DNA from: Yuukianura sp. NJ FZ-2021
Lineage: Eukaryota
Direction of reading: 5' to 3'
DNA: 64,000 nucleotides
Assembly: GCA_046563655.1 (NCBI GenBank)
Contig: CM102290.1
Span: forward strand, 11,966,001-12,030,000
Part shown: positions 17,227-63,335 of the stretch, piece by piece
Position numbering within the stretch: the stretch's first letter is position 1
How the letters are laid out: every line of letters starts with the position of its first letter
Translations under genes and position numbers: made by a program
Notes under the pieces: generated by a model
Database searches by the model: none
The model's input: only the letters and a program-made list of their open reading frames with translations
Told to the model about the DNA's origin: nothing

Positions 17227-19506
17227 ATGGGGAGCCTCAATCGCCTAATTTTTAAAGAACTAGCTCTAGTACGTCCATCTAAGTCACAGGCAGTGCTGAC
17301 ATTAAGATCACTTCATCGACCTCCTGTGCTGCAACATCTTTCGTTGAATTCTAGCCGTCAGTTGTCAACTAGTCTATCAAAAATGGTAAGATTGAATACT
17401 GAGACAACAGTAACATTACCATTTCATTATGAGAAATGACCTCTGAATTCTTTTGTCAAGGCTGAGTATCGTTTGGAATCGGATACATTTGGAGAGCTGA
17501 AGGTCCCAGCTGACAAATTGTATGGAGCTCAAACTCTACGATCTGTAATGAATTTCCCTATTGGTGGAACCTCGGAAAGAATGCCGGTACGAACTAAAGG
17601 AAGCTGAAATCTCTTGAATAAGGCTAAATAAGTGCTTAGTACTAATATTTTGTCTAATATGATTTATGCGATAGCTTCCAGTGGTAAAAGCGATGGGGGT
17701 ACTGAAGAAGGCATCCGCAATGGTCAACAAGGAGTATGGTTTGGATCCGAAAATCGCTGACGCCATTTGCAAAGCTGCAGATGAAGTACGTGTATCTTAT
17801 TTTCTAAAATTGCAATCACCACCAATTAGCAATTACTTTCAAATTCCATTTCTGCATTTAGGTGATTAGTGGCAAATTGTATGATGATCATTTTCCGCTG
17901 GTCATTTGGCAAACTGGTTCCGGCACCCAAACCAACATGAATACCAACGAAGTGATCTCAAATAGAGCTATTCAGTTACTAGGAGGGAAGTTGGGTTCCA
18001 AGGATCCAGTCCATCCTAACGATCATGTCAACAAGAGCCAGGTATGATTTCTATATAGTGCCTATGTTACTTGCCAAGGTCAACTGACGAACTTCATCTA
18101 ATGTAGTCCATCATTGTATATCGCAGAGTTCCAATGACACCTTCCCAACAGCAATGCATATCGCTGTTGCAACTGAATTGAATCAAACACTACTGCCTTC
18201 GCTTCAAATGCTGCACGATGCCCTAAAGAAGAAATCCGAAGAGTTTAGTTCCATTGTCAAGATTGGACGAACTCATACACAGGTTTCTAAAACGATTATT
18301 TTACGTTGAGTGTTAGAATGAATTTTAATTCCCAATTGATATCTTACAGGATGCAACTCCATTGACTCTGGGCCAAGAGTTCTCAGGTTACGTTCAGCAG
18401 TTGGCGTTTGGATTGGAGCGAATCAAGGCTACGTTGCCACGATGCTACATGCTAGCCGCCGGAGGTACTGCTGTTGGAACAGGGCTGAACACTAGGATTG
18501 GTTTCGACAAGAAAGTGGCAGAAACTGTTGGCAAATTGACTGGTAATGTTAAAAACACATTGTTACTTATTACATACACTTTACATCAGATGTCTAGAAA
18601 CGCAATGTCTAACGAACTATTACTTCGAATATCTAGGTATGCCATTTGTGACTGCGCCAAACAAATTCGAAGCTCTAGCATGTCATGATACCATGGTTGA
18701 AGTGTCTGGAGCTTTGAACGTCCTGGCTGTGTCTCTCATGAAGGTAAATAATCAACCCGAATTGCCAGCCATCGCATCAACTAGTTACTCCATTTAGCAA
18801 ATCAACGCTCAAACCAACGTTGCTTCATTTTCAGATTGCCAACGATATTCGATTCTTGGCGTCTGGTCCAAGATGTGGATTAGGCGAACTGTCACTGCCC
18901 GAAAATGAGCCTGGTTCGTCCATCATGCCTGGCAAAGTGAATCCTACCCAGTGTGAGGCCATTACAATGGTAGCGGGACAAGTCATGGGCAATCATGTTG
19001 CTGCCAGCATTGGCGGAAGCAATGGACATTTCGAATTGAACGTCTTCAAACCAATGATTGTGGCCAATGTCCTTAGGTATTTCCACTTTAACTTTTTCGT
19101 AAATTACTTTTCATGACTGTAAAATTCTAAAACTGTTTTGTTACTTGTGTTAGGTCGATTCAATTGTTGGGAGATAGCTGTAAAGCATTTACCACTAACT
19201 GTGTTGACGGAATTGTTGCAAACAAAGATCAGATTGACAAGCTACTTCACGAGTCACTAATGTTAGTCACTGCACTCAATCCACACATTGGCTATGACAA
19301 GGTAAGTTATCGAATTTTTGTTCTAAAAAATCGTATATATAGTAATTACAGGAAGTTTTGGATTTGTTTTACAGGCAGCAAAGATTGCTAAAACGGCTCA
19401 CAAGGAAGGAACGACCTTGAAACAAGCAGCACTGAAACTGGGCTACTTGACAGAATCTGATTTTGACAAGTGGGTGAGGCCAGAGGACATGCTTGGACCC
19501 AAGTAG
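17227..19506 (+). CDS. FH: Class II fumarate hydratase with mitochondrial presequence
   Basis: Multi-exon. Motifs include [61 protein letters not shown] and the signature [15 protein letters not shown]. Ends [11 protein letters not shown]. Confidence 0.97.
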
Positions 19507-20178
19507 ATGCCGAATCCTTCAGACAGACTACAATGACAACTTGGAAATTGAATTTGCCCACAATATTTTGGACAGTCGTTGACCAACTTGCGAACATGTT
19601 CAAATATCATATAAAGGAAGACATAACGCGTAAATAAAAGCAAGAATGAGGAGAAGGACACTGTTTTTTTTTTCAAGCGGTTTTTAACATTGAATCAATC
19701 TCGTCATTCTCCTCGCTGAGTTTATAAGAGGAAGAATCATTTTTGCAAAGTGATTTTTAATCTTAAAAAATTCAAGGAAAAAGTTCACAAATTTTGAAAT
19801 TTGGAGAATTATTCGTTGCGTAAAATTTTGATACGCTCATAAAAGCACGTAACTGTAGAAAGTACTACATCTGCAATAAAGTTTTGAACTTGGATTAAAA
19901 AGTTACGGTTGGTTAGATTCCACTTTCAGATGAGTTAGGCTGAATGAATTAATTAGGTTAGCCTAAACTAACCTTACGTTATTTAACAAATAGATTACAT
20001 CAATCTGTAATTAAGTCACACTACACTTACTCCTCACTCAACGCTTTACTTTCACCCCATTTTACATTTTATACTGTTTACAGTTTTTACACTTTTACTT
20101 TCTTTTTTTTATTTTAACAAAACACTTCTCAATCAGTTGATTTCTGAGTTTACACCTACACATTTCACACATTTGAGA

Positions 20179-21544
20179 ATGCGTCTTTTTCAGATTTGTA
20201 TTTTGGCGGTACTTTTTTGCGCTCGAAGTTCCTATGGCTGGGACAAATTAGACATGGCGAAATCCCTGTTTCGACAGATCTACCGAAGTGTTCTTCCGAC
20301 TTCAACTCCGGCTCCGAAGTATTACGATCCAGTCGAAGAGTTCCGGAAGTCCAAGGACATCATTTTTGATTCAATCGGAATTACTCGGGCTTTCAATGGA
20401 CATAAGGGAACGACGCTTGCGCGAGTGACTGGACCAGTGAACGTGCGTCGACCATCACTTCAATCTGTAATGTACTACTACAACTACACTCTAGTCATCA
20501 CGTGTGAGTCCAGTTTAGAGCGATGGGACTGTCCATACTGTCGAGTCCTTGGTGGACACATTCAGATGGTGAAGCTTCATGTCAACAAGAAATGGCACAC
20601 GAAGTGGATGGTTACAGTGGACCACCGAAGAGACGAAATCGTTCTAACATTTCGCCCGACCTACAATGTCGGAACTCTACTTCTGGACTTCTTTGTGAAA
20701 CAGACGAAAGTGAATGGGACAGACATTGGGATACACACGGGATATTTTGACGCAGTGGTTGCAGACTACGACGAAATGGTAAACGTGCTGCGACAACTTA
20801 TCGTCTGGAATCCAACATACAAACTCATCATCACAGGTATACATCACACATAATTTTTACGTTTTGGAACTTATATAGCTGATCTACATACTACTTATTA
20901 TTCGACCTTGACCTGCAGGTCACAGTCTTGGCGGGTCACTGTCAGCCGTGATGACTTTCCTTCTGACGTACAACAACGTCTTTCCAGGAACGCAGATTGA
21001 GCTGTACACATTTGGCCAAGCACGAGTTGGCAACAAGGCATTTGTGGACTACATGAACAGTCTGCACATTCCTCTCGCAAGAGCCGTTCACCGCGACGAC
21101 GCAGCAGCACGTATCACTCCTGCCATCCTGGACTACTACCACCATCACAACGAATTGTACATGGACTATGACAAACATGGACGGATGACGGCCCGGTACT
21201 GCTCCGCTGCCTTCTACGAAGATCCCGACTGTGGACAGTCACGTGGTCCACCGTTCCCAGTCTCTGACCTTATTATAGGCATCATTGACCACCAGACATA
21301 TTTTGGTTTAGATGCTACTAGGTGTGCACAGAACAATTTAGCAGAGTTTCTGCTTCAAGCCGTTTGGCCATTACGTGACAGCATCCCCAAAGAAATAGTG
21401 AACAGGCTTCCCCCGCTTGCTGTAGAGTTCTCGGTCTTCCAGGATATTACAAAACTGTTTGGGGGCGGGGGGATTCGAGACTTGTATAAAATAGCGTCAC
21501 AAAAATCATCATCTGATAAGTATGGAGTCAGCAAACCCAAATGA
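20179..21544 (+). CDS. Secreted class-3 (fungal-type) triacylglycerol lipase
   Basis: Signal peptide MRLFQICILAVLFCARSSYG. Exons 20179-20836 and 20919-21544; splicing creates ITG|HSLGG (nucleophile elbow). Also W.C..C, IHTGYF, YTFGQARVGN..F, and DHQTYFG (catalytic His). Confidence 0.9.
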
Positions 21545-22034: not shown

Positions 22035-23479
22035 TTATCTGTGCGGTGGAAACGCTTGTTCCATGAGCAGTTCGATCGGAATTTCAGGAATGTTGCCCTG
22101 CGCATGTCTCGAAATTTTGATTGGTCCATGCGTCTCGTCAAAGAATCCACAACTACGCAGGAAAAATTGTCCGTTTTCCTCTCCGCATGTCCGATCCTTG
22201 CGATCTCCCGTTTCCTTGTCCCCACCCAAAAACTTCGCAGACGTGACCTCCGTCCACACACCGTCGGGGGTCCTCACAAACTGATTTCCGAGTAAGACTT
22301 TTCGTTCAATGAAGCTCGTCGAAGTGTCTATCCCTTCGTCAAACGAGTAGAACCGATTGAGGTAGCCACTGAACTTTGGTTGTTTAAAACTCGCCATGAG
22401 ATTCCATGTCCCAAGTTCGGGTGCCCAGAACCAGGCAGCATAGCGTGTACGATTGTCGTCCATTGGTGACGCGTGGACTAGAAATTTGTATGTCACGCCT
22501 GCGCGCCACTTGAAGTCAAAGTTCGAGTGGAGTCCGGAACCCTCTCCTCCAAATGGCTCAATGGCAACGTCCCGCCCTTTCCGCATGACCTTGACCTTGA
22601 ACTGGCTCGGGATATGCGTGGGGTCATCCGTGTTGAACCTCGACCACAAAGCAAACAACACCGTACGTCTTGTTTCGGAGTTTGTTTGAATTCCAAAATA
22701 GCCGCTGCGAAAAACAAAATGTTAAGTTTTGGCATAAAAAAACTAAAAAAAAATCCTTTTGGAAAGTCTCACATTGCCCCATTAGAAACTAAATTTTTTC
22801 AAAAAAAAAACAACATAATTTCGCATCTTTTTTCTCCCGCAATTGAATCTTTCCGCAAAAACTAACATTCCAATTGGGGCATCGTGAGATACCTATCAAA
22901 TCCTATAGCCATAAAGTAGGCCCCCACAGGGTCCAGTCCTTCAGGGACCGTGACTTCATTGTAGTAAAAGTCAGCATTAGGAGGGTAGCCTTGGTAGAAG
23001 ATGTTGATGCTGGGACCCCTTAGACCCCAGTAGTACTTTGTAGGCTCACAGACGAAACAGAGGGCATCACAATCCGCATGGTCCAGAATCAAGTCCTTCA
23101 CATCCCCAATCCAGTCGCCACTTTTGGAGAGTCCTTCAATGTCAATCCGATTGTAGCCACATTTGGGTAGGTCGAAGTGCCCGACTTTGAAATCTTGAAA
23201 CTCAGTGCCAGAAATGACCAACTCATAGGCCTGGCCGGACACGGGGGAACTCACTTTGATTTGACTTTTCCCGCCAACACACTTGGCTCGAAGCGAAACG
23301 AAGGCTGTAAGGGGATGTTGCGTTTTGAAGTAAACCGAAGCTACTGCTCCGATGCCTGTCCAGTTCCCTAACCCTGAAACGGGACTGACGCTGGCACCAA
23401 CTTCCTCCTCTGAAGATGCTTTCGTTATGTAACAGTTTCCAGCCAATGGAATCACGGTAGTCTTCACAGAGCAATTCAT
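22035..23479 (-). CDS. DUF5077 + DUF3472 domain protein (Bacteroidetes-type / nematoblast-specific-protein-like)
   Basis: Exons 23479-22893 and 22704-22035 with a GT-AG intron at 22892-22705 join in frame: IPLAGNCYIT...YYWGLRGPS...FYYNEVTVPEGLDPVGAYFMAIGFD|SGYFGIQTNSETRRTVLFALWS...FGGEGSG...WRAGVTYKF. The family was recognised from these motifs. Confidence 0.8.
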
Positions 23480-24115
23480 CGTCGCTTTTCACCTCAAAAC
23501 GGCTCGAATTTTCAAAAATGACACTAATTTTTATCAATACCGCAAATATTAAAAATGCCTTGATCCGCCACTGCCACTGCTGTACTAAAAGGCTGTAGGC
23601 TTGAATTACAAAAAGTAACTGTACCTTTTATGTAATTAGGCAACTTTGTTAATTAGTTGAAAAACCGCATTCACCTGAGACATCACAAATCTTAATTGAC
23701 ATTTCAATTTAAAGTTTACACCTTTACTACATCAACACAAAACGGAAACGTCTGAAATTTTTAGTTTTAATCCAAGAAAAAACTTAAGGTCGAAAATACA
23801 GATGTAAAATTCATTTATTAAAGTCCTTATAAATACAATATTGTGATTAATTAACTTAAAGTTAACATATCCTTTTTAGCGAGAAAGTATAAAAAGGTGT
23901 TTTAGTTTCACTGCGATTGCGAATCCTTATAACAAATTCGCTTGAAAACATGTATTTTTTAATATTTTTTTTTCGTGGTATGGTATTTCTAGGTTTGACT
24001 TTGATTTGATCTTGAGAGTGGGCGGAGCTTAGCGTCTGTGCAGAATAATGAAGCTTTGGTTTAATTTGAGTCAATTTTTGGAAGTGGAAGTGTTTCGATA
24101 GGTAGCATCTTTTTG

Positions 24116-26163: not shown

Positions 26164-26991
26164 ATGGCAGAACAATACAAATTGACTTACTTTAACGGAC
26201 GGGGTAAGTAATCTACTGTAATTAATTAATGATACCTGTACTGAAAACGACTAACTTTTTCATAATTGGTGTACAGGAGCTGCTGAAACCATTCGGTACA
26301 TCTTAGCATTGGCCGGAGTCGATTACGAAGATCACCGAATTGAAAAGGAAGACTGGCCGGCTCTAAAACCAAGTAAACCTTAACCACACAGCTATGTCAT
26401 CTTTTCGAAAACACTTTTTCAAAATCCTTTCTTCTTTTAATAGGTACTAAGTATGGTCAATTGCCAATGTTTGAAGTAAACGGAGAGCAAATGGCTCAGA
26501 GTATTGCCACGGGGCGATACTTGGCTAGGAAGTACAAGTTGGCCGGAGAGACCCCCATGGAGGAGTTCAGGTGTGACGAACTGATTGACTGCCTGCTCGA
26601 CTTCCGTCCACACATGCGTGCTCTGTACATGGAAACTGACGAAGCCAAGAAGACCGAACTCAAGAAGAAGTTCATTGACGAAGTCGCTAAGCCCTTCCTG
26701 GACAAACTTGTTGCTCTCAAGGAGAAGAACGGCGGGAAGTGGATGGTCGGCAAGAACGTAAGTCTTCTATGAAATATTTGATGTAAGGAAATAACTAACC
26801 TAACTAATCATATCACCCTCGGTCAGGTCACCTGGGCTGACATCCATGTAGCTCATGGGATGGAATACATCAAGGTATTGGATGCCAACGCTTTGTCCAA
26901 CTACCCAGCTATTCAGGAACATCAGAACAACGTTTTCGGACTCCCGCAAATCAAGAAGTGGATTGAAACTCGCCCCAAAACTGATTATTAG
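26164..26991 (+). CDS. Glutathione S-transferase, sigma class (copy 1)
   Basis: Four exons (26164-26203, ~26277-26372, ~26444-26757, ~26828-26991). Sequence: [74 protein letters not shown]. Confidence 0.95.
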
Positions 26992-27665
26992 ACAAAGGAA
27001 ACACAAGAACGGAGATTATAATGAAATGGAATTTTTTTTTTGTAACAATAAGCTAGTGTCTGTCCATCACAATTTCACAATGCAAAATTCAGAAGGCCAC
27101 TTCAATTACCATGCATTGTGTTGAAATTGAAGTGTTTTTGTCTAAAATGCTAAAATGGAAATAAAGCATTCCACTTTCCATTGTTCCAGGAATAGCATTT
27201 CCAGTTTTTATTGCTTCAACTTTCCATTATTCATAAACTCCGTGTTTGCTTACTTTCAAATGGAAACTTCGTATTGAAAACGTTTAAATGAAATCATAAA
27301 AACTTCTAATTTTAGCTTTAACTTTCATTTTAACTTTTAACTTTCTAAATTTTAGTTAAGTTGGAAAAGTTCATTTGAGCATTTATCGGTCGATTGTTCT
27401 GGAAGAAATGATAAACTTGAGCAATTGTAAATTGAACGTGCATAGAGTATATAAAGTGGTGATGTGAGAGTGATAAGTGGATGAGATAAGCATTTCGATT
27501 GTCACTTTTTGACCAAAAACGCTCAAATCCGCGTGACTTGGATACGCCAAAATTACACATAAGAATTTTAGCATTTAAAGGAAAACTCGCTCACTTTTGT
27601 TCACCTATTCTTTTTCCAATTTCTAAGGAGGCTGACATTTGGGAGTGAACTAATTCGAAAAAAAA

Positions 27666-28862
27666 ATGGCGGAAAAATACAAACTCTTATACTTCAATGC
27701 TCGCGGTGAGTCGCTTTCGATCTTTTTCGAACTTTCCCGCTTCTAACTCGAAGCTAATTGAAATTTCAGTAATTTATGTAATCCTTTTTTTTTTTACTTT
27801 TCACCACAGGGCGTGCTGAGCCAATTCGACTAATTTTTGCTTATGCCGGAGTAGAGTTCGAGGATAGACGTTTCGAACTTGCAGAATGGCCGGCTCTCAA
27901 AAATGGTAATTCACTTTTACGGAACGTTATTTTTTCCGCCCTTTTACACTGCCCGAAATTTTCGACGTTTTTGCTATTGCCTGTTTGTCGGCCCCTTTAA
28001 AACCCCCATTTCGTCGGCCGTTTTTGGTCTGTTTTTCTAAGCGGCCACTTTTCGGACAATTTTCTGTACCCATTTTCGGACAGTTTTGTTTCGGCCGAAA
28101 TGCCCATATACTGTCTATTCTATAAATAAGAAACTAAAAACCTCAAACCTTTTCCTTTCTCCATTTCTTTTCAATGCGGCCTCACTGCGGCCATAAAGGA
28201 AGCCTCACTGAGGCCTACGACAGAAATGGAGAAAGGGTTGAGGTTTTTAGTTTCTTATTTAGAGAATGAGGTTATTCCTATGTTGTTTGTAAAATAATTA
28301 ACAATTCCTTTCGCAGGTACCAAGTGGGGAGTAGTACCGGTACTGGAAGTGAATGGAGAACCAATGGGAGAAGTATCAGCGATCATAGGCTACTTGTCCA
28401 GGAAGTACGGAATCGCTGGACAAACTCCATGGGAACAGTTCAGAGTGGATGAGCTACTGAGTGCCTTTGGAGATGTTGTCAAGATTCGTGACTTTGTAGT
28501 AGAACAAGATCCCGCCAAAAAGGAAGCTGTTCGTAAAAATTACGTTGAAAAGAATAAACCACTGTTCGCAAAAGTGTCGGCACTCAAAGAGAAAAATGGC
28601 GGGAAATGGCTCGTCGGTGAAAAGGTATGTGAACTTTCGGATTTTCAAAAATCATTCCCAATTCTGAATTTGAATTTTGAAAATTTTTATTTGAAAGTTG
28701 ACTGCAGCTGACCTTCTCGTTGCACATGGGTTGAGTACTGCCCAAATCGTCGATCCCTCAATTCTTGCTGAATTTCCAGGTCTCCAGAAGTTGCAAGATG
28801 AAGTTTTTGAAGTTCCGCAAATCAAAAAGTGGATTGAGACTAGACCAAAAACGTTTATTTAA
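27666..28862 (+). CDS. Glutathione S-transferase, sigma class (copy 2, diverged paralog)
   Basis: Same four-exon layout (27666-27705, ~27810-27905, ~28317-28624, 28698-28862). Sequence: [62 protein letters not shown]. Confidence 0.93.
28117..28267. mobile_element. Fold-back / MITE-like inverted repeat in GST copy 2 intron 2
   Basis: Left arm ATTCTATAAATAAGAAACTAAAAACCTCAAACC...TTTCTCCATTTCT...GGCCTCA is the reverse complement of right arm TGAGGCC...AGAAATGGAGAAAGGGTTGAGGTTTTTAGTTTCTTATTTAGAGAAT. The loop is short. Confidence 0.65.
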
Positions 28863-31714: not shown

Positions 31715-34671
31715 TTATTCTTTATATAAATCCAGATCCTTCACGAAGTAGCACACGAACGCGTCAAACACCACGCCGATCAGCATAAACGCTAGTTTCA
31801 AAAGACACAAAAATTAAAAACTCAATTCTTAAAAGAAAAAAAAATTATTTTCGAAAATTTTGAGAAAAAAAATTGAATTCTTACAAGCTGCAACAATGTT
31901 AAAAATGTAGCGTAGTTGGTGGCCGTCGTAGAGCACACAGTTGCCAGCTTTTCCGCATTCCGCTCCACCCCAAACGAGACATACGCTGTCTAAAACAAGA
32001 TTTTAACATCACGCTTTTTTTTTAAATCAAAAATTTCAAAAAATTGAATTCAAAATTTTCGCGAGCGTACCTATGATACGCCCAAAAACGATAGGAGCGG
32101 GAAGCATAGCTAGAGCGCTCAACACCAAAATGTGAATCCCAATAGATAGAGATCGTTCCTCCACTTTTACGCACCTAAAAAACGATTTTGAAAATATTTA
32201 AATTTAAAAAAAAAAAAGGTTTCAACTAATTTTTGACAAAGTTTTTTGAGCTTTGAGAGGTAGAATTTTGAAGTGTTTACCGGTATGAGACTAGCATGTT
32301 TCCTATTCGACCTGTTGCATCTACGAACTTAACAATTGCAGAGATGACCAGAAACGTAATGAAGATTTGTGAGCAGCCGCTTGCGCATGTACCGAGTTCT
32401 ACCGTATCTTCGAGACTCGGCAGACAACTGCAATTTCCCATCTTGTTTCCGCTGTCTATCGTTTCACATCCTGCGTGACACGCAGAGTAGAACAAAGTGT
32501 TTTGCTTTTCAAAGCAAACCGGCAAAATTTTGCTGGTTTTGCAGTTGCAGTCGGCGTTACACGCAGACGTCAAATTCCAACTGTCGTCAAGCGGATTCCG
32601 AGTTCCGAAAGAGAGCTGCCCAATATCACAGCCGAGTTGGGTTAATCCAAGCATCACGCAGACACTCAGGAATCCCACAAACACGTTCCAAGCTGCCAGT
32701 GTTCTGGCGCTGAATTGAAAGCGGGAAATCAAAATTCCAGAAAGCAGGAGCCCACCAGCTTGCGTAAAAATTCCAGTGATACCTTTGAAATAGAGCAAAT
32801 TTAAGCAACCCCTAGATTTACGTAACTTTTACAACTTTAGTTTACGTTTTTTACGAATTTACGCAACTGTAAGTGCCGTATATGGTAGTACCTGAGATTA
32901 TTGATGAGTTTGAGGCTGTTTGCATGAAAATGGTTTCCATGTACTTGGGCATGTACGTCCAGTAGCCAATCCCAGAGAAGAGGCAAAAAGTCCCAGCCAA
33001 ATTGTTCAAAACGTTTACTTTGTTCTTTAGCAAAAGTTTGACAGCGTTAGGAATCTCTACAAACATAACTTTCCTATTACATATCACATATTTTTGCATA
33101 AATTTGTACATAAATCTACATCATTTCTCAAATTTTTAAAAAATATTTTTGAAACCTGAAAATTTTGGCGGCGTATCCAGTTTTGTAGATGTCAAATCCG
33201 CCGTACTCTCTCCCTTCACTTTTTTCAAGTGACGGGGAAACATGGCCATTAGGGAGGAAAAAATAATCATTGCACTTCCCAATATCACCCATCCTAGCAA
33301 CCATTTTCAAAATTTTGAAAAAAATTTCATTCTTATAATTTTGGAATTTTTAACTTCAAAAATTTACCTAACCACCAGGCACCAATCCACTTCGGGCTCT
33401 CCGGCGTTATTGTTGGCGTGAGCAGTGGGTTGACATACATTTTGAGTGCAGCAGATGCCAGGAGGAAGCCAAAAGTTGGACCAATCAAACGCAAGCTCAT
33501 TGTTATTCCTGCCAATCAGAAACCTGGATTCTAGGAATGCGTAGAAGCAATGTTTTTTTACTACGCAACTCACCGAATAACATCGGAATGTTTTTCCGTT
33601 TCGTGTTGTCGTCCATGTAGGGACCACCGAGCGTAAAAAACAGCAACACTCCTATGCCGCTCACAAACTGCGAGCAGAAAATGAGCACCAATGGAACAAA
33701 GTTTGTGTCTTGGTCTGCGCATGTCTCATGCGTCGGTGCATCTTTGCGACGACACAAGTTGACGTTCGGGTTGATCGGATGTTTCAGGGGATTAGTCGAC
33801 CCAGGCGTAGTTTTCGGTAGATCGGCTCCAGTAGTAGTGGTTTCTGTGTTTTGAAGTAATGATGCTACGTGATTAGCTTCATGCGTCTGTGCCATGGCTG
33901 TAATTTCAGTTTCGTCAAGACCGTTGATCCATGAGAATTCCTGTGTCAATTCCAGTGCATCTCTACCAGAACCGTAGAAAGCATGTGGAGATGCAAGGAT
34001 TAAACAGGCCACGCCTGACAGCAAAACGCCTGTGGCTATCCACCGAGGTCGGTGACCTGCAGCCCCGTAGTACGACAGGAAGATGGAGAACAGGATCTGA
34101 CTCACCTCGTTTCCAGTCATCACGATTCCTAAAATTTTGAAATTTTGTAATTTCAAAAAATTGGAAACGTTGAGTTTTGAAGTTACCGGCCGTTTGGGTG
34201 CTGATTTTGAACCGTTTTTCGAGCGTAGAGATAGTTGCGGTGAAGTAGGACCATGACATGCCCTGAATAACGCCGAGGAGACTAAACACGAGCACAAAGT
34301 ACCTTTTAGTTGCAAATCGCTGCATCCACTCGGCAGTAAAGCCAGCGATGCCACAATCCTCCACAGCGTCGTCATTTTCTTCATCGTCTTGTTCTTTTCC
34401 CGCCTTTTCGTTTTTCACTTGACTCAACTCAAGTTCAAATGACATCCGTCGCACGTCAATCACTCCACTGAAATCAAAAAATTTAACAATTTTTTGCAAC
34501 TTACAACACTCTCCTTTTCAAAAAATACGTTTTTGAGCAGAAAATTTGAAAAGTTCGCAAATTTTCAAAACCGAAGCTGAACATTGGGTAAGAAGTTTAG
34601 CTTTGGTTCAATTTCCTTTTTAAAATTAAGATTCTATGAAAATTTTGAAAAGTTTTTCCTTACGCTGTCAT
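31715..34671 (-). CDS. Organic anion transporting polypeptide (SLCO/OATP family)
   Basis: About ten exons starting ATG ACA GC|gt at 34671. Motifs: TISTLEKRFKIST, GNEVSQI, GHRPRWI, LGGPYMDDN, GPTFGFLL, PKWIGAWWLG, Kazal-like CNADCNC...PVC...FYSACHAGC, PIVFGRIIDSVCLVWG..CGKAGNCVLYD. Confidence 0.93.
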
Positions 34672-36431: not shown

Positions 36432-38738
36432 TCAGACGGAGGTTTCTGAGCTGAGGTGGAGGCTGAACTGGTTGTTTTTGGGGTCAGTGACCTCTTCCAG
36501 AAGATTCACGTGCGGAAGTTGGCGTACGGAAACGAACAGACTCACGTCGTCTCCGCGCAGCAGAAATTCTGTTCCGTCTTTGATTCCACTTGACACTGAC
36601 CCTTCGCTCACCAATCCCCACGACACTGATCTTCCGCTCTCCGCCTATGTTCAAATAGTCAACCACAGTATTAGAAATAAAAGTAGGTTGGCTAGTTTAA
36701 ATAGTTCAATGCAATTGGGTCAACGGAATTGTATCAACAGTTCAACGTTAATCATATCAACACACAAAATGTATCAACAAGCTATCCCAAGGTGACTTAT
36801 TGTTATAGTCCACAGGCCGGAGCTACAATCAGGCAGTTGATCCAACTCGGTTGATACAATTGCAGTTGGATCAATTCAATTGCAGTTGATCGAATTCCGT
36901 TGATACAAAATGGAAAAAGTTGACTAACCTGAATGGCGGTGGGAGGAGCTAGGAACTTTTGGAGGAAAGCTCTTGAGGAGAGGCCGAGGTGTAAGCAGGT
37001 AGCGAGATGCTTGAGAACGCTTTCTGAGGAATGCCACGGTTGTTCTCGGCAGCATCGAATGTACTTCTGGAGGGGGCGAGCCAACGACGGAAAGATGACA
37101 GCAGCAGTCTCATTGCTGTCCAGCGCCTGAGTGCCACCTACCGTTCAAGAAAAATCCAACATTTTCATAAACTGTTTCAAAAAAGTAAACAATTTACCAA
37201 ATCACCAACCTTTGTCTTGTTGTATTCTTTTGACTTGCGTGAAAGCTTCCTCTGCTGCAGTGATCAGCCTCGCTCTGCGTTTGCGCAGTCGTTCCAAATC
37301 CAACTCCTCTTGGAATCGGTCGTGCTTTTTTGTCACGTGAGATCGATTTGACCCACGTCCAACCTTACAAGAAAAAAACATGAAGTTTTTAGAGATTTCC
37401 AAAAACATTTTAAAATCATGACGCTTAAAAATCAAAATTTTTATAAAAACCTACCAATTGAAACAGAGACTCTTCTTCCAAGTGACCAAAAAGTGTTGAT
37501 GTCTCGTCGTCTCCCAAACTCTGCTTCCTGATTGGCTGTCTCCTGTCGAGATGCGGGTTATATACTGGGAAGTGCGTGTAATAGTTCTCAAGAACCCACT
37601 GCGCAGCGCGTTGTACGCTCAGCGGTCCAATGAAGCAGTTCCGATGGACTCCGTCAGGAGAGCGTAGAATCGACACCTTTTTGAAAAAAAGGAAAAAAAA
37701 AACATGCAACATTTCAAAAACATAAAAATATAGAAATCTTTAATAAAATTCTGATTGTGAGAACCTGAAACTGCGGTTGGATGTGTCTAATTTGTATGAG
37801 GAGAACACCCAAGTAGTGGATTGCCAGCAAAGCATCTGTCAGACCGCCTACAAAAAAAGTAAATTGTGTAAAATTGGTCAATAAAAACCGCGCTTGAATT
37901 TGAAATTTACCGGCAAATGCTATGGCTCCCAGGAGAGAAAGATGCTGTTCTGCTCGTACCCAGTAGAAGAGCCAGAACGTGAAAACGGCAAAGAACGTGA
38001 GGAGGAGGGTGGAGGTGCGGAAAAGATGGATGCGGGGCAGTGTTGCTCGTGGCAACCGCCAGAATACTGCCCAAACCCCACCCACGAGCACCACCGTCTT
38101 CAGAGCCAAAGTGAGCAACAGCGCATGGCACTCCGATCCGCAGTCGGCAGTCGCTCCAGGCAAAAAGATTACACCCGAACCAACACCGAACTTGTGAGCA
38201 ACCACCATCAAAATTGGACTCACTATGGCAACGACTACGACGAGCCCTCCGACAACAGGTCCACAGAATCTGGCAGGCAACAACATCGGTCATAGTAACT
38301 TTTTGAACTTTCACACTTAGGTCAAAGGTCAAATTAGTAGAAAATTTCAAACTGTGGTCAAAAGTAGCGGGAAAGTTAAACTCGGGTCAAAGGTAAAAGT
38401 AAAAATATGAAGTTGCGGTTAATTGCTAATCAGTACCTTTCGAAAATGCCGGTTCGGTTTTGCCGTACCGGTTCTGCGGTACGGTCTGTTTCCCACTTTG
38501 TTGATTTCTCTTCCGCCAGTAACGTCACGGGTGAATGTGACATCGTGTGACCTTCGGACTGGTATTTATAAATATAATAAAAATATTTAATTGAAAGTAA
38601 AAACTAAAGTATTTATACATAATAAAAATTCATACTAGTATGTTTTACCTGCGGCTCTGCCTGTGTCTGGGATTCCGGATCACGAAGATGCTCATTGGAG
38701 TTGCGAAAATTTGTGTTGTTGCGCAGAGTAGAATCCAT
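36432..38738 (-). CDS. Vang: Vang/Strabismus family planar cell polarity protein (divergent)
   Basis: Exons from 38738-38649, 38558-38437, 38269-37910 onward. Four TM segments, then FWRLPRATLPRIHLFR, DALLAIHYL, RSPDG, LSVQRAA.WVLE.YY..FPVYNP, KRRARLITAAEEAF, MARPLQKY and a C-terminal PDZ-binding ETSV*. Confidence 0.9.
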
Positions 38739-40411: not shown

Positions 40412-41702
40412 ATGGAAGTGACACTGCTCCTGTTCTTTGTTGTTGTGGCGGCACAAGGGCGCCATTTCCACGGAATTCAAAAATACTACGACCGGTATGC
40501 TCCAAAACCTACCATTTCCTCAGAAGCCGCCAAATTCAAACAGTGAGTTGACAATTTCGCTTCAAAATTTAAACTTGTACGGTACGGTTTCAAAGCGTTG
40601 GAACGAAATTTCAAAAGGATTTGAAAAAAAAATTGCTTCAGTCGATTTCGTACTTTGACGTTTTGAAAAAATGTATCAAACGTGTAGAAAACACTTGGAA
40701 ATTTAAAAATTTGTTGAAATTTTTTTTAGGTCTCGTCTCTGCTCGGCGTCCAACGACGGAGGCGCTCCCTACCGGTACTACAAACCAACTCGACAATGCT
40801 ACGTAGTGGGAGAAAAAGGACCCTGCGGAGACATGATGGCATTCACACTGGTCGACAGAGACTACGGTTTTAACAATTTCAATATAATATTTAATATTTT
40901 AATATAATATAATATGTAATAAAATATTTAATTACTTCAGGAACCTGTGACTGCAGTCAACAAGATAGATGTGGACGCCCATTGATTTACTGGCCTCAGC
41001 AAAAGAGATGCTACAGAGTCAATGAACAGGTTGACAACAATTAGTTTACGAGGGAACATTCCCAACCGTTCGTCAAGTTTTTGAATTTAAAAAATACAGC
41101 CATATTCTGTATGTCAAAAGAAAATTTTCTACACGCTAAAATTGCGGGGTAATTTTTTTTTTGGCGTTGGCAACCGAAACAACTGCAGAATTTTTTTTTG
41201 ACATACTGAGTATGACTCTATTTTTAAATTCCAAAAACTTGACGAACGCTTGGGAATGTTCCCTTGTCAGTTAAATATGTTAATTAAGAATATAGCTAAA
41301 AATAATTTGTTCTAGGGTCCATGCATGGCCGGGAAGTGGCTCACTTTTGGCATGTACTTGACTCCAGTGTGTAAGCGGAATCCGTGTGAACAGCACATGC
41401 GCAGAGACCCCTCCCGGGGAAGCCAGTTTTGGTTTGAAGTTGGAGGTCAATGTTTCAGAACGATGACGCAGGGTTACTGTGCTCCTGGGCAAACCCTCCT
41501 CAACCAATGGGAAGACTACAAACCAAAGTGCTACGACGCAGAGAAGCAGCTGAGGTGTGTGCAGACGTCAGTCAACGCTTTAGCCTGTCTACCGGGCATG
41601 CTCCACAACCATTCTACGGAATGCGTGTATCGGCGCTTAAACGGAACTGACGCAGGAGAAACTCTTCCGCTTCCTAATATTTACCATTTGAAACTAGAGT
41701 AA
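40412..41702 (+). CDS. Secreted cysteine-rich protein (DUF4789-like, repeated CY...GPC modules)
   Basis: Signal peptide MEVTLLLFFVVVAAQG. Exons 40412-40542, 40730-40867, 40941-41029 and 41315-41702 are in phase. Modules: QCYVVGEKGPC, GTCDC, RCYRVNEQGPC, VCKRNPC, QCFRTMTQGYC. Confidence 0.8.
41048..41267. mobile_element. MITE-like element with ~85 bp terminal inverted arms in intron 3 of the Cys-rich gene
   Basis: AGGGAACATTCCCAACCGTTCGTCAAGTTTTTGAATTTAAAAAATA... pairs with ...TATTTTTAAATTCCAAAAACTTGACGAACGCTTGGGAATGTTCCCT around a ~50 bp core. It fills most of an otherwise short intron. Confidence 0.75.
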
Positions 41703-54216: not shown

Positions 54217-57200
54217 CTACTTGTCAACTGAAACACCCTGAAAGAGCTGAGGTTCTGAGCTTAGCTTGTCTCTTACATGTTCCAACGTATTCAGAAAATG
54301 CTTATTAATTTGCTCACTCTCGTCACTGTGTTCTAAGTTGGGAATTTCGTCCCTGATCTTGTCAATGATTTGATTTACTAATGGAATCGTTATTTCCTCG
54401 TTCCCCTTTTCTAGAAAATACAAGTAGTGGTTGAGGAGTTCAATGAACAGTTGAACTTGAACCATTGGATCCATGCACTGACTCCCGATTTTCACACCTT
54501 TCTTCAGTGCTTCCAGGACACGTTTTCCATTCCGAGTCTATAAAATATTACAGTCATGCAATTTAGACAATTTTGGGAAATCATTTTAAAAGTTAACAAA
54601 TCAGTACGTACCGGTTCTCCGTTTGTCATTAGCGATTTTCCAGACCAAAACAAATGTGCGCAGGTTCCTACGGCTCGGCACTGATCAGGCTTCTTTAGAA
54701 GCTTGGAAGCTGCAAGGGCACATTGAGCCCTCAAAGGCTCGTGATTCTCTTCGCCAAAACAGCCCATCTTCTCTACTGTACCGATTATCAATGTAATGGC
54801 CGCCAATTGTGCTTTGCTATCCGATATTTCATCCTCATAAAGCGAAAATGCCTGTTTCAAAAAAGACATTAGAGGGTTTAACGATGAATTTGTACTAATG
54901 CATCATTTGACAATTTTAGTTGAAGTTAGCTGACCTGTGACATGAACTCGTACGCTATGCTCTCTTGGTTTTCAAATTGGATTTGACTGATGGCAAGGGC
55001 ACCTTGCAGAAAAAGTCGTATCGGAAGTTCAGCCAGTTCTGCTTTGGTAAGCGCCACTATCGTTCCATGGCAAAATTGAAATATTTTCTGGCACTTCTTC
55101 TCCCACTTATCGTCCTGTTTTCCCAAAAAACGAGTAAAAATTAGTTGAAAATAACAGCATTGAGCTAACACGAATTATGCTGAAATCAGTTGGGTTTGCA
55201 TGATAAGAATTCGTAACTTACGTCGTCTCTCATCCGTTCATACTTAAATGCGAGCTGATAGGCCGAGAAAACAACCGGTGGGAGAGTAAAGGGGATTCGT
55301 TTATTCCCGCCCGCTCCAAGGTGCTTCCGTGCAGTATTCAGTATCAAATACTGCTCATCCGGTTCATCAGATGACAGAAGATGAAGAAACCTGCGAATTG
55401 GCAACATCAACAATTTGTCAAAACTTATAATTATAGCAATTGCGGCAGCAGGTTTATGCAATACCTTCCAAGCAAACTCTGTTCCTCAGCGAAATCTTCC
55501 GGATCTTGTGGCTCCGGTGGTTGGTCTGCCTGGTCTTGTATGAGAGCCGAGAGAAGCCCGAGTACGAAATCAGTCTGCTCATGCGTCCCAATCAGTGTCT
55601 CATTCTCCAGGGCATTGTTGATCAAGTAGATTCCAATTCCCTTCCGACCTTCAAAGTCCATAAAGTCCAAGAGATTCCCATAATTTTCAAGTCTGAGGAG
55701 GGTTATTATATCGTTGTAGCAATCGACCGGGATTTGAAGAAGCTTGAACAGCTCCCTCCCAACAGGCGATTGTTGTCCAATTCGCTCCAAGTTGAACTTA
55801 TTGAAGATCTCAGCAGTTTTGCCGAGCACTTTGTCGATGTAGTCTACCCGTTCGGGGTAAACCTTGTAGGCCAGATTGATGAGGGAGACTTGAAGGGCAA
55901 CGATGTCTTCGGACGCCATGTTGGGCTTAGACTGCAAAAATAATTCAAAAACACACATAGTTATTAGTATGCAACGCCACAATTATTTTCATAGTTAAAT
56001 GCTTGGAGGTTCAGTAAAAGTCGAATTAATAAAGTTTTTGAATTACCAGAATGATTTGTGCTACTTGGTCAGAGAAAATATCAAAGAGTTGTAAATCCGT
56101 TGGTATCGTGCCACCTTCGTCCTTGGTCTTCTGTGTATAAATTGCCAGTCGATCGATAAGGGCAATGATAATATTCTTAACGTTAACGCCTCCCTGAAGT
56201 TCAGCACACGCCCGCAAAAAGGAATGGAGCGTTATGAGATGAAATTCGTCAGGAAATACTTGAATGATGCACTCCATCAAGTATTCTTGAGCAATTGCAT
56301 CCCGACAACTCACGACTTGCTCCAGTAAGCTTGGCATAACCACCTATGACAAAAAGTAAATGTTAGAAAATAGGAATACCAGGACTGCGCTGATTGTCTC
56401 ATCTGTGTCAAGGGACGTTGCAGTACCTTGGTGTATTTGTCAATATCGATGCACTCCAGTTGAGACAGTCGAACAAGATTGGTGCCCACGAGAATCCTCA
56501 GATCTTGCCTCTCCTTTTCCCGTCTGTCCTTGTCCCTCGTGTGACCTTGATGCTGCATGCGCACCCACAGTTTGTTCATCTCAGCAAAGTTCATAAGAAC
56601 AAAATCGATGGAGTCTTGAACCTAAAATGACATGCAAACACGGATCATGAGAAACATATCCTTCGTGTCAAACAGAAATTTGGATGTTATGCCTTACTGT
56701 GCCGCCAGCATTTGGATCGTCTGGCTCTAGCCCCTCGTTGTCCAGAACATCCGGAAGGATGTTCCTTGTGCATTGAAGCAGGTAGTTTCGCAGAAAAAGT
56801 CCACGTAATGGATGTTGTACACCACGGCACATTTCCACCATGTCTTTCAGAACATCACGACACAGAACTGGTTTAGTTTTGATATAAACCAGGCCCACGG
56901 TAATCAACAGATACCTATATTTATAAAATTGAGATCAAGTAATGAAAAATGTAATACAAGTAGTGGTAAAAATAACAATGTACTGTTGCCTTACAATCTG
57001 GGCACAATATTGCCAGCATACTGAACCAACTCGTACAAATCTGATACTTGTCTTCCTTTTTGGAATTCGTCGACTAAGTAGAGCTCTAGATGTCGAAGTT
57101 CATCTGTGACTGCCATGTCTATAAAGCAAAAACAAATCATAATTGAATTTTCTACGTCATCATGCCTTGCTTTCGTCGACGATGAAAATCAAATCTAAAA

Positions 57201-57549: not shown

Positions 57550-58704
57550 GTCGGAATACTTACAGTTGCACTGATACTTTCAGATTCAGAGTCGTTTATT
57601 TACACGTTTGACACTTGACAGGAAATGACAAAAAATACTCCAGTTATTCCGGAGTTTCCGGAGAGGAGTTTTCTCTATTTATCACTCACTCATGTCCAAT
57701 GCTGGTGCGCAAATCCGCCCCCACTCAACCAGGCGCTCCAAGGTTCGGTGAGTTCCGTCCTTTTGTCTGTCCGATTAGAAAGTTTAAATTCGGTAAAATT
57801 TTAGTTCTAATTTCGTTGAATTAAACTTCATTTTTGAGCGATTGAAAACATTAACTTTGAACTGTAGTATGTTTCTCGTATATAAAGCACCTCGAAATAA
57901 GAATTTTTAATTACGCTCCTAACTTGTCCATTGTCAAGATTAAAAAAGTCTGAACATCCTAAATTCGTTTGGAAATAAAAAAAAATGTTAACGAAAAAAT
58001 TGATGCAGCTCTTTATATGGAGATTATAATGCTACACCACAAAATCTTTTTCGGTTTCTAACTAAAAATGCTCTCTTTTTTTTATAGTTAACACAAATTA
58101 GCACAAGTACTAGGCTTAGACTCGAGTCGACGATAATAGATAGGATAATTATTTTAAGGTATTAAGTTAAGTTAAATTAAGAAATTCTGATGTCCGCTCG
58201 GGATTTGGATACCTCTGTGTGAAAGAAATATCCGATGCAGTAATACATAAATTCGTTTGGTTGCGGTAATCCATGGAAGATAGGCCAGACACACATAAGC
58301 ATTTTGCTATGCATAAAAAGTTAAGTCCATAAGATCACATCTTTCATGTCATTAATCCCTACTCATCTTCTCATCTTCATCTCTACATTAGCAGCTCCAA
58401 CTATAGACTGGGATGATTAGTGGTGATGATGACTCATTCTCAAGGGCATGGGCTTGTTACAGCACAGTAAAACTCACATTTTCAATTGAATGAATCAATT
58501 GTTTAGGTTTACGTGTAGGAATTTGTGTTGTATAAGTCAAAGAGGTCAAACGAAAAGGAGAGGTCAACAACCACTTTTGGCTTTTGTATTTTAGGTACTA
58601 AAAAAAATTTTTTAGTAAAAAATGTGTTTTTTACTTTTGTCTTTTAATAAATAACAAAATTAAAACTTTTGGAATGAAAAATATTGGAATGTTGAATTCG
58701 GACG

Positions 58705-60157
58705 CTATTTGGTGGGCAAATACAACTTCTCAGCTCTGACCAATTCATCATCGCGTTGTAGACGAAATATTTCCTTCACCGGCACAATCTAAGTCACAGA
58801 ATAATTAGTGCGTCGGTTAGTTTTCAGAAGAAAATGAAGAACTTATACAGAGCAAACTTAACTTTTTCATAAAAGATGAAAGATTAACTTGTAATGCCAA
58901 GTTTTTAAAAAACGAAATGTCTTTAAACTTACCGAATCTTGTACATCCACCAAATGTTGATTTCTGAAAATGTTGGACGAAACCCACTGCATCGCTTTGA
59001 CTGAAGCGCGGAGGTTGTGATTGGCCCAAATCACAAGACTGACACCCATCTGAGCTAATTCTCGCGTGGGAGTTTTGAAATAATTCGTCGGTACAACAAT
59101 GACAGGACCCTGTTGAATGAAGCACCAAATTTTCAAAAATCATGAAAGCGTTTTTTACACCGTTTTTTTCTAGGAAAGATTTTAATGTTCAAAATCAAAA
59201 ACCTGATTCTTCCATGCTTTCATGAAGGCTGCAATATCCGATGGATCTGACTTTTTGCTGTGCATGAGAATAGCGTCTGCGCCGGCATTCCGATAAGCTT
59301 CTGCCCTGCGCAGAGCCTCATCTAAACCCCAGCCAGCAATGAACGCCTCAACGCGTGCTACGACAACAAAATCAGGATCCACTTGATGGTCTTTACATGC
59401 CTACAGAAGTAAACCCATATTAAAATTTTGGCAAAAGTTTTTCAAAAAGTGCTGATTTTGTTTTTAAAAAACGTTTTTGTTATGTTACCTTGATTTTCAA
59501 AGCAAACTCCTCTACATCGGCTAACGGTTGTTTCCGATCATCCAGCAACGAATTCGTCTTCGGAAATAATTTATCCTCGAGACAACATCCTTGAACCAAG
59601 TAAAAATCAAAATTGCATTTTTTTTTGTGAAATCACAAAATTTTTGACACTTTCAAAAAATTTTCTTATTACCCGCTACTCCAATTTTCTCTAACTTGTG
59701 AACCAGTCTTCGAGCATTGTTGAAGTTGCCATATCCCGTATCAGCATCCAATAAAATTGGAATTTCAGTAGCATCCGCCATAAACTCCAAAACTGACACC
59801 ACTTCCGTCCAGGAAGCTTCGTTGCTATCTCGAACCCCCAGTTGAGCAGAAATTGACAACCCACTACCCCAGATTCCCTTGAACCCTAAAATTTAACATA
59901 AGACATAAACTGAAACAAATATTTCAAAAGTTGTTATACCATTGACCTTTGACCTCCTTCCGTATTCTTCCATTCCCAAACTCACCCGCTTCTTCTACAA
60001 TCCTAGCTGAGATTCCGGAGTGAGCCTCCATGATAAATTCCAATTTGTCCGAAACAAGCATTTGCTTTAGTTGCGTCGTTTTCTTGACAGTTGACATACG
60101 TCGAGACAATACGCCAAATGACACGGGTGAGTAGATCTGCTTCAATGTCGACAACAT
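58705..60157 (-). CDS. pepM: Phosphoenolpyruvate phosphomutase (PEP mutase), 314 aa
   Basis: Six exons (60157-59986, 59885-59673, 59589-59489, 59400-59203, 59109-58933, 58788-58705; 945 nt). Motifs: [40 protein letters not shown], the diagnostic [27 protein letters not shown] and [10 protein letters not shown]. Confidence 0.95.
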
Positions 60158-61155: not shown

Positions 61156-61357
61156 TTCTCAAGGTTAACATTAGGTAACTCGTGTCAAGTGGAACTCAAT
61201 TGAAGATTTGATTCAAATAGGCTCTCGTCAGTTTTGTACAGTAAGTTTCCCTTGAAACATCACGTTCACGAAAAGTTTCTTGGACATTTTTATCATCCAA
61301 ACTTGTACTAAAATTTTTCTTTTTCTTGGTTGAGCTTTGAGTAATTTGAAATTCGAA

Positions 61358-63335
61358 ATGACGGGAGTCGCTAAAGATTTAGTGGAGTTCTACACCGAAA
61401 TTTTACGGAAGAATGGAATAACTGATGAAATTAAGGAAGTGACCGTAAAAGTGCCCGAATTGGCGGGAGAGCAATATGCAAGTCAATGTACGGAAGTAAC
61501 AGTTCATTTTGTGAACAAGGATGTACCACCACTGGAAATCTTTGTTAAAAATACAACCGCGAATGAACAATATGCGAAGCAAATGGAAGACGTTTTGATG
61601 TTTGAAAAAGAAGCCCAATTTTTTAGCTCACTTCTTCCTGATGTTCTTGAATTTGCCGAAAAGCATCACGGGTATGACGGAGAAATTATTAGAAAATTTC
61701 ATTTTGATACTATTTAGTTGTAAATTTTCGAAATATTGTTGTTTTGCTTAATACAGAAACAATGGTTCCCTGAAAAGCCTTTTCCCAAAATGCTATCTCG
61801 CTACGCATGACACTGCCATTTTTAAAAATTTGGTTCACAGTGGATACACCAAGCTAAGCAGATTCACGCCACATGATCTCCATACGGCAGAGTAAATTAG
61901 ACTTATTTATTTATAAAATAAATATGGAAATGTGAAAAATATGGGAATTATTTCTTCGCTGCTTTTGTTCGTAGATTAGTGATAGCAAATTTGGCTAAAT
62001 TTCATGGGACGTTCCGAGCTTATATTCAATCAATCGGAGAAGAGACGTTCAAAGCCAAATATTCGCATATCAGTTCGCGTAACGTTTGGTTGGAAGAAGG
62101 AGAGTTAATCAATGGAACCTGGATTCAACAAGCTGTTGAAGGAGCGATACAAATATTGACGGTAAACTAATAATGAAACTAAGTGTAATACCGAGCGTCC
62201 TAAAGTGAGGTGAAGATTAGCTCTCTATCACTCTATCGCTGTCCGTTCTCGAGATATTTTTCAAAATTTTATTTAATAAAATTTTTTCCAAACATTAGAA
62301 AATTTCGTTTTACTTGGACGTGAAAATTTTGCCCCTAAAAATAGGTTGTGATCCTCCTACGGCTCACACCGTAGAAGTTCTAAGGAATGTTCAAGTTTTG
62401 ACAAAAGAAAACCATGTTCTTATTTCTTTATGTTGTTGTTTTCAGCGTAAGCCTACGAATGGGTCCGAAGAAGTTTTGGAATTTTTCAAGAAATATGAAA
62501 CCAAAGCCATGCTGAAAATTTGTCCTTTGTTTTACCTCAACAATCTGCGGTGTTCCGTAGTGTTAAGTCACGGGGATTTCTGGAATGGAAATATGATGTT
62601 TACTGTTAACTCAGAGACCAACCTTCCTCAAACGTGTGTTTTTCTTGACTTCCAGGTAAGTTATTAAAAAAGTAAGAATTATTTTAAGTTTTCAACAAAT
62701 TATGATTCTTTTTTTTAATTTTTTAATTCCTAGACTATCAACCTTTCAACTCCGGCACAGGATTTGATTTTTTACGTTTTCTTTGTAATGGACGCGGAAG
62801 TACGAAAAAGGAACTGGAAGCGTTTACTTAGCTTTTATTACGAACAAGTTCAGCAAGTAATGAGTCAGTACGGACAGAAGATTCAATACAGCCTCAGTGT
62901 AAATTTCCAATTTCTTTGTCTTTTAGTCCATGTCCTGCCTAGTTTTACACATTATCTTCTTATTTCTGCTCTTTTTGTTTTGAAAAAAATTTTAAACGGG
63001 AGTAGCCGACTAGGCTTGGTTGCTTTGGAGGCACTACTTTCTTCCAAGAACGGTGCATAACAATATTTTTTCATTTTTAGGACTTGACATACGACTTTTG
63101 TACCAAAAGTGTGGCTGGATTCTTCTTCGGTTTGTATCCAATATTTGGATTCGAAGCTTTGGAAAATGTTGGAGGTGTTCAAAATTCAGATGGAAATGCA
63201 CTGGAAAATCTTTCCGCTACCATGAGCAACTCACTGGACAAACTCATGGACACACGCGGAACAGAATTTTCAAAAAGTATTGTTAAAATGTACAGAGAAT
63301 ATCAAGAGATTGAAAAATATTCACAAGATGATTGA
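61358..63335 (+). CDS. Ecdysteroid kinase-like (EcKL/DUF227) small-molecule kinase
   Basis: Six exons (~61358-61671, 61757-61891, 61975-62161, 62446-62654, 62734-62897, 63081-63335). Motifs: GEQYAS, IFVK, FEKEAQFF, FPKCY, LAKFHG, LSHGDFWNGNMMF, FLDFQ, PAQDL, LLSFYYE. Confidence 0.9.

Follow-up and report, generated by a model that had tools for sequence, protein, structure and literature searches.

The biosynthesis of 2-aminoethylphosphonate (AEP) is described as a pathway of three enzymes, a phosphoenolpyruvate (PEP) mutase, a decarboxylase and a transaminase (PMC10540779, PMC3640398). All three genes are expressed in velvet worms, which also carry AEP-glycans. The same paper from 2023 predicts that various arthropods have phosphonates, which has been confirmed for locusts, and lists krill, a shrimp and Locusta in its Table S2 (PMC10540779). 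AEP on a locust glycoprotein, dating from 1993, is also cited in a glycan review (PMC6935376). According to an excerpt from a 2013 coral paper with a survey including Drosophila, the decarboxylase did not turn up in the genomes of other metazoans (PMC3640398), and the relevant passages of another paper interpret the homologs of bdelloid rotifers as catabolic (PMC3499245). We found no paper on a phosphonate pathway in springtails or across hexapods in searches that covered mostly literature outside subscription and were partly swamped by off-topic papers. We did not encounter the terms phosphomutase, phosphonopyruvate and aminoethylphosphonate in the text searched for the genome papers of Folsomia and Orchesella (PMC5490193 with main text and 3 supplements, PMC4987106 with 2 supplements).

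Our window, i.e., the whole 64-kb stretch of DNA that was analyzed, is part of a 15.3-Mb contig in an assembly of 98.7 Mb and 22 contigs. We consider it very probable that this window encodes a single-copy, vertically inherited PEP mutase that would start de novo AEP synthesis in a springtail-type hexapod. The predicted gene has the following features:

59986..60157, minus strand: exon 1, residues 1-57, including the start codon and the N-terminal leader (TIGR02320 positions 1-28 correspond to residues 30-57)
60086..60157, minus strand: N-terminal extension of 24 residues with 3 K/R and 0 D/E, a likely mitochondrial presequence
59886..59985, minus strand: intron 1, 100 nt, phase 1, in Gly58
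59673..59885, minus strand: exon 2, residues 58-128, with the GSGL loop and the Asp equivalents of Mytilus 58, 85 and 87
59590..59672, minus strand: intron 2, 83 nt, phase 1
59489..59589, minus strand: exon 3, residues 129-162, containing the capping loop
59549..59578, minus strand: PEP mutase (PepM) signature EDK-x5-NS, [10 protein letters not shown], residues 133-142, equal to Mytilus chain residues 114-123
59401..59488, minus strand: intron 3, 88 nt, phase 0
59203..59400, minus strand: exon 4, residues 163-228, including the equivalents of Mytilus Arg 159 and His 190
59110..59202, minus strand: intron 4, 93 nt, phase 0
58933..59109, minus strand: exon 5, residues 229-287, including the WANH stretch
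58789..58932, minus strand: intron 5, 144 nt, phase 0
58705..58788, minus strand: exon 6, residues 288-314 plus TAG (relatives align up to residue 312-314)
58643..58648, minus strand: possible variant polyadenylation signal ATTAAA, 57 nt beyond the stop codon

A sequence-only reading of the window had described six exons that splice to an uninterrupted protein of 314 residues. This description is borne out, with six minus-strand exons (60157-58705) that join to 945 nt or 314 residues plus TAG, five introns that are all GT-AG, and no internal stop under the splicing predicted from the sequence. Coding GC (0.457) and GC3 (0.47) are inside the range of four neighboring exon stretches (GC3 0.43 to 0.58), and the GC content of the introns is 0.27. 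The downstream neighbor of the gene is Vps35 (Pfam match 55431-55982), and an ecdysteroid-kinase-like gene lies upstream and points away from it. The five introns and the Vps35 neighbor support the earlier view that the gene is not contamination. Ordinary neighbors in the window are 2 GST-like genes (one of them examined with Pfam), an OATP transporter, Strabismus, a weak match to DUF4789, and the ecdysteroid-kinase-like gene just mentioned (26377-28711, 32277-34517, 37714-38289, 41316-41702, and 61334-63060) as well as lyase-family (fumarase-like) exons near 18300-19100 and a class 3 lipase gene with 2 long exons and a signal-peptide-like start (20011-21544, plus strand). A further gene combines DUF5077 and DUF3472, which are mainly microbial domains, in 2 frames with an apparent intron between them (22035-23488, minus strand) and is possibly a transferred gene.

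The EDK-x5-NS signature is given as a PepM marker in passages of two published papers (PMC12723261, PMC8942020) and is found a single time in the six reading frames of the window but never in 30 mononucleotide shuffles. Among NCBIfam models, all 5 scoring exons have TIGR02320 (PEP mutase) as their best match, with exon 6 (27 residues) giving no match, and the models of phosphonopyruvate hydrolase and methylisocitrate lyase (TIGR02317), which share the isocitrate-lyase superfamily, match the same exons more weakly. As a rough sum of separate exon scans that excludes exon 6, the TIGR02320 scores amount to ca. 322 bits (curated cut-off 319.55), compared to ca. 164 bits for the hydrolase model TIGR02321 (cut-off 374.4). 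Five close relatives with 71% to 78% identity, scanned whole, score 388 to 412 bits with TIGR02320 and fail the TIGR02321 cut-off with 243 to 260 bits. All 15 checked active-site positions are identical to the mussel chain at a constant offset of 19 residues. These positions, which we take to be the metal ligands and substrate-binding residues, are W44, S46, G47, L48, D58, D85, D87, E114, K120, N122, S123, L124, R159, H190, and N239 in Mytilus. Of the 158 columns with a conservation of 90% or more in 60 relatives, the protein agrees with 154; it deviates at residues 49, 85, 280, and 285, three of which carry a residue absent from all 60 other rows, and the Glu at residue 85 also occurs in the solved PepM 5unc. 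The best solved match of exons 2 to 5 is mussel PEP mutase with gap-free alignments, and the protein is nested among named PepM in our trees, which contain no hydrolase or lyase rows. Phosphonopyruvate hydrolase was rejected as an identity based on KTNS in the window protein versus KDTS in the hydrolase (PDB 2dua) and the far lower scores. Isocitrate and methylisocitrate lyases have a catalytic loop of the form K-[KR]-C-G-H that is absent from all 314 residues, and this identity was rejected as well. By its motif, exon-wise TIGR02320 matches, and active-site positions, which bear out the original assignment, the predicted gene is thus a true animal-type PEP mutase, and the grouping with hydrolase or methylisocitrate lyase that had been named as a possible refutation was not found for any scoring exon.

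As far as our genome searches see, the PEP mutase gene is single-copy, with exon 2 matching once. A second PF13714 match in the genome was considered as a second mutase and rejected, being an isocitrate lyase on C3 (ca. 12748900-12750370, plus strand; L042:2423-3870). This intron-containing gene has an intact KKCGH loop and finds its best solved matches in short isocitrate lyases of ca. 430 residues. It suggests a glyoxylate cycle and was likely gained horizontally; the term malate synthase is absent from the searched text of 2 springtail genome papers (PMC5490193, PMC4987106).

The top full-length BLAST match in our first set (P0022) clusters with Allacma fusca, and a quick tree of 61 rows places the window protein in a clade of 9 rows together with 4 springtail and 4 other rows (SH-aLRT 99), with 13 insects as the sister of this springtail clade (SH-aLRT 87). 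A careful tree under LG+G4, for which 25 mostly near-duplicate or long rows were dropped to leave 36 of the 61, recovers the springtail clade with support of 98/98 and resolves neither hexapod monophyly nor most of the deep branches; the barnacle sequence falls outside the hexapods. In an AU test with the fuller search, sister positions to Mytilus (p 0.001) and to the bacterial-type sequences (p 0.017) are both rejected and a hexapod clade is not (p 0.32). A faster search with 2000 replicates and poor constrained trees gave p values of 0.052 for bacteria, 0.004 for Mytilus, 0.11 for hexapods, and 0.11 for hexapods plus barnacle. Six of the 7 bacterial-type rows bear this label based on a missing leader or a PF12804 fusion. 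The phylogeny proposed by the sequence-only reading therefore gives a split result, since the springtail clade and the rejection of a bacterial sister stand, but hexapod monophyly is without strong support. Judged from the mutase tree and the best matches of the decarboxylase, the animal is most likely a springtail.

The intron positions were compared as had also been proposed, and the result favors vertical retention. A metagenome scan by intron pattern, which selected for intron 3, gave 3 loci that represent 2 real PepM genes and 1 chance match. Introns 1, 2, and 3 are shared in position and phase with both genes, i.e., a bivalve-like one from a marine metagenome (L020), whose 8 best named matches are all molluscs, and a springtail-like one (L021); because the scan selected for intron 3, only introns 1 and 2 are independent evidence. 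Indirect intron evidence comes from the ends of ORF fragments called on genomic contigs: 4 from the coral cluster start at residues 57-58 (intron 1), and 6 from the oyster cluster terminate behind residue 228 (intron 4). For intron 3 (residue 162), the corresponding break of coral and oyster fragments is near residue 165, around 3 codons further on. For intron 5, no shared position was found in the mollusc-, coral-, or springtail-like genes compared. Altogether, 4 of the 5 intron positions are found again in mollusc-like or coral-like genes. We take this as a sign of vertical inheritance, the best reading of the origin of this putative enzyme.

No downstream enzyme of the pathway had been noted in the window, but the rest of the genome encodes both of them on separate contigs, resulting in 3 contigs for the 3 genes. 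The predicted phosphonopyruvate decarboxylase gene (G000:C1:7304491-7299547) has 7 exons with GT-AG introns throughout, including one of 2.5 kb, and an open frame of 473 residues. TIGR03297 is the best model for 5 of its 6 scanned exons, with 1 exon giving no match, and the protein is 66% to 75% identical to 3 springtail proteins (Orchesella, Folsomia) and 51% to 55% identical to 4 prokaryotic ones. The predicted AEP transaminase gene (G000:C4:3527847-3526205) comprises 7 exons with 370 open residues, AEP-transaminase models as the best match in all 6 scanned exons, an SANKC lysine motif, and AEP-pyruvate transaminases as the best solved matches. A phosphonate cytidylyltransferase had been suggested as a third search target, and no bacterial-type PntC (PF12804), fused or clustered, was found among the 3 candidates that were scored in our exon-wise search, which may miss short exons. 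The same type of search, again with this limit for short exons, detected no phosphonatase in the genome, and its only match to the PhnA model (E 1.4e-4) is weak, with a sequence resembling ordinary ectonucleotide phosphodiesterases. The predicted gene route to AEP is complete, and de novo AEP synthesis is likely because both downstream enzymes are encoded in the genome, which supports the earlier proposal that this animal probably makes its own phosphonates.

In the mechanism that we propose, PEP mutase would rearrange PEP to phosphonopyruvate, with the activity assigned from its family and a probably mitochondrial location. Phosphonopyruvate decarboxylase chemistry is irreversible, and the thiamine-diphosphate-dependent enzyme encoded on C1 would pull the unfavorable equilibrium of the first step by forming phosphonoacetaldehyde. 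The PLP-dependent transaminase encoded on C4 would then generate AEP, probably in the cytosol. As the least certain step, an enzyme of the ethanolamine-phosphate cytidylyltransferase type may activate AEP as CMP-AEP, and the activated AEP would be attached to ceramide or glycans as a phosphoethanolamine analogue. The 3 genes would be ordinary, housekeeping-like genes.

The assignment of the first 2 steps to mitochondria is based on the acid-free leaders of mutase and decarboxylase, which we infer to be of mitochondrial type, and a cytosolic third step is probable because the gene model of the transaminase lacks such a leader. An N-terminal extension of 14 to 61 residues is found in 50 of 52 eukaryote rows, compared to 2 residues in all 4 bacterial-type rows (5 rows without the anchor motif were left out), and the first 62 residues of the decarboxylase contain 5 basic, 0 acidic, and 22 Ser/Thr residues. 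Met21 of the mutase is a possible alternative start that would give a cytosolic form. The database name of an Andalucia counterpart points to the mitochondrion, and passages of a preprint describe mutase and decarboxylase of rhizarians as targeted to mitochondrion-related organelles (bioRxiv 10.64898/2026.09.23.753574).

The activation step has only candidate genes, since no PntC was found and the ethanolamine-phosphate cytidylyltransferase (ECT) of Trypanosoma brucei is described as rejecting AEP as a substrate (PMC2784872); the latter also makes a dedicated AEP-activating enzyme plausible. Besides the canonical ethanolamine-phosphate cytidylyltransferase on C7, the genome encodes an intact paralog on C6 (L024:1806-102, minus strand) with 7 exons and 412 residues, of which 172 of 357 are identical to the C7 enzyme (48%); its N-terminal HxGH motif is retained and the C-terminal one altered. 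Orthologs of this paralog were not found among the best 150 of 827 matches. Eight proteins score higher with the C6 than with the C7 enzyme, but these are 6 short fragments and 2 cases of unequal alignment length, and 10 matches that were looked up by name include a diatom and a fungus. As an AEP-activating candidate, the C6 paralog is therefore a weak lead. A near-copy of the C7 enzyme on C8 (6647027-6648228, minus strand; L028) has an altered HxGH motif and, close to its end, an apparent frame change; it looks like a decaying duplicate. Four loci have clear matches to PAP2_C of the sphingomyelin-synthase family (C1:2853420, C1:2858916, C2:7137127, and C2:4058009); two of them are 5 kb apart, and they are candidates for a ceramide-AEP synthase. 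The window itself contains a glycosyltransferase family 21 gene that resembles ceramide glucosyltransferases (ca. 11500-16000, plus strand; Pfam match 11509-11919) at a distance of 45 kb from the mutase. Phosphono-glucosylceramide is listed for krill in a supplement (PMC10540779), but the linkage of this gene to the mutase is probably chance.

A profile of 5 arthropod PEP mutase sequences retrieved at least 15 named hexapod clusters among the best 120 of 7999 matches, and those listed include Orchesella dallaii, Folsomia, Ischnura, Cloeon, Neocloeon, 2 Schistocerca, Anabrus, Gryllus, 2 Timema, Bacillus rossius, Periplaneta, Zootermopsis, and Diploptera. With the PEP mutases of Allacma and O. 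cincta, which were identified separately, the named orthologs add up to at least 4 springtails and at least 13 insects from 5 non-holometabolous orders. Among the matches listed, named decarboxylases come from both Orchesella, Folsomia, Cloeon, Periplaneta, Ischnura, Anabrus, and a barnacle, Pollicipes. No named holometabolan or hemipteran appears among the best 120 matches of either the mutase or the decarboxylase search, in which many matches carry no species name, and this suggests a loss of the pathway in Holometabola and Hemiptera. A gene model of Allacma fusca (P0127, 597 residues) has a long tail without Pfam match after the mutase and is probably a merged model. Based on these annotated orthologs, phosphonate synthesis is predicted to be common to other springtails and many insects and not peculiar to one animal. 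The sequence-only reading had called the pathway rarely described in hexapods and had expected its novelty to fall if orthologs were already characterized across them. This largely applies, with orthologs across springtails and 5 insect orders for which we found annotations but no biochemical study, and with AEP known from a locust glycoprotein since 1993.

It could be argued that springtails gained the mutase horizontally from a microbe or another eukaryote and that introns were added later. Such gains are common in this group, with a springtail literature rich in papers on transferred genes, and the genome studied here has at least one bacterial-type gene with introns, the isocitrate lyase on C3. 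Bacterial-type PepM are 64% to 71% identical to the window protein, and the deep branches of the tree are without resolution. However, a bacterial sister was rejected in the fuller AU test (borderline in the faster one), the unselected introns 1 and 2 match the bivalve-like gene in position and phase, and intron 4 matches the ends of the oyster ORFs. Furthermore, mutase and decarboxylase have insect, barnacle, mollusc, and cnidarian counterparts, and the pathway terms do not occur in those supplements of the two springtail genome papers that were searched. We therefore regard a horizontal origin as very unlikely and prefer vertical inheritance.

The 3 genes might also serve mainly salvage or catabolism, either by degrading dietary phosphonates of soil microbes or with the mutase running backwards from phosphonopyruvate to PEP. 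The mutase equilibrium favors PEP, the AEP transaminase is reversible, and a catabolic reading was chosen for similar genes in the bdelloid rotifer paper introduced above. Yet the irreversible decarboxylase points to synthesis, the loop motif is of the mutase type and not the KDTS of phosphonopyruvate hydrolase, and our genome searches found neither the phosphonatase that is needed to finish AEP breakdown nor a clear PhnA. The predicted gene set fits synthesis, not breakdown, and we give salvage very little credence. About equally improbable is that the intact gene is barely expressed or contributes to a phosphonate other than AEP conjugates, which might be free AEP or N-methyl-AEP but also phosphonoalanine or a small compound used in defense. 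In favor of this option, the attaching enzyme is represented by candidates only, and a supplement reports N-methyl-AEP lipids in krill (PMC10540779). Against it, all 3 predicted AEP genes are intact and under evident constraint, and the land-dwelling relatives with data in the tables consulted, locust and velvet worm, are described as carrying AEP on glycans (PMC10540779, PMC6935376).

Enzyme, pathway, and even a hexapod product were already known, so that the textbook is unchanged and our finding is a pointer. It consists of a complete three-gene route in a small springtail genome and of orthologs in 5 insect orders, with no holometabolan among the named entries listed. This distribution pattern is useful and apparently unwritten, though no surprise to a phosphonate specialist. 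It suggests that early-branching hexapods commonly synthesize phosphonates and that this went unnoticed because insect biochemistry is dominated by flies, beetles, and moths. We lean, by a modest margin over even odds, towards AEP synthesis as an ancestral hexapod trait with mitochondrial first and second steps that persisted in springtails, mayflies, damselflies, orthopterans, stick insects, and cockroaches but disappeared towards the Holometabola. Soil would then receive C-P compounds from springtails as an animal source not counted so far. That this ancestral trait is joined by a C6 paralog acting as the animal enzyme that activates AEP to CMP-AEP seems unlikely as a combination. Springtails, which are abundant in soil and in some cases easily reared, are tractable animals for approaching the role of AEP in animals and the enzymes that activate and attach it.

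Among known enzymes, PEP mutase of Mytilus galloprovincialis (EC 5.4.2.9, TIGR02320; PDB 1m1b, 1pym, 1s2t-w) is 79.5% identical to the window protein over 298 residues and has an identical EDK-x5-NS loop. The 4 exon alignments are without gaps, and the solved chain starts at around residue 20 of the springtail protein with most of the leader missing. The close resemblance to Mytilus that the sequence-only reading had named thus stands as identity and animal type but not as kinship: the window protein belongs to the springtail clade and deviates at 4 conserved columns, and because the tree rejects a Mytilus sister, the likeness would reflect slow evolution. The database-annotated PEP mutases of the Collembola Allacma fusca, Folsomia candida, Orchesella cincta, and O. 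dallaii, for which we found no printed description, share this supported clade at 70.6% to 78.0% identity and have a similar leader, and Folsomia and both Orchesella also have the decarboxylase. The window protein adds a further species that is 20% to 30% distinct from the other springtail proteins. Velvet worms (PMC10540779) and the coral Acropora (PMC3640398) are described with the same 3 genes, PEPm, Ppd, and AEPt; the coral genes are intron-bearing, with 7 introns in the mutase compared to 5 in the window gene (PMC3640398). For these animals, expression or the product, AEP-glycans on slime proteins, has been shown, whereas the springtail pathway is predicted from its genes. The mutase of Schistocerca, a relative of Locusta, is 75% identical to the window protein. 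In Locusta itself, Hard et al. are said to have found AEP on the N-glycans of apolipophorin III in 1993, which is product evidence from an insect, and the window complements it with gene evidence from a non-insect hexapod.
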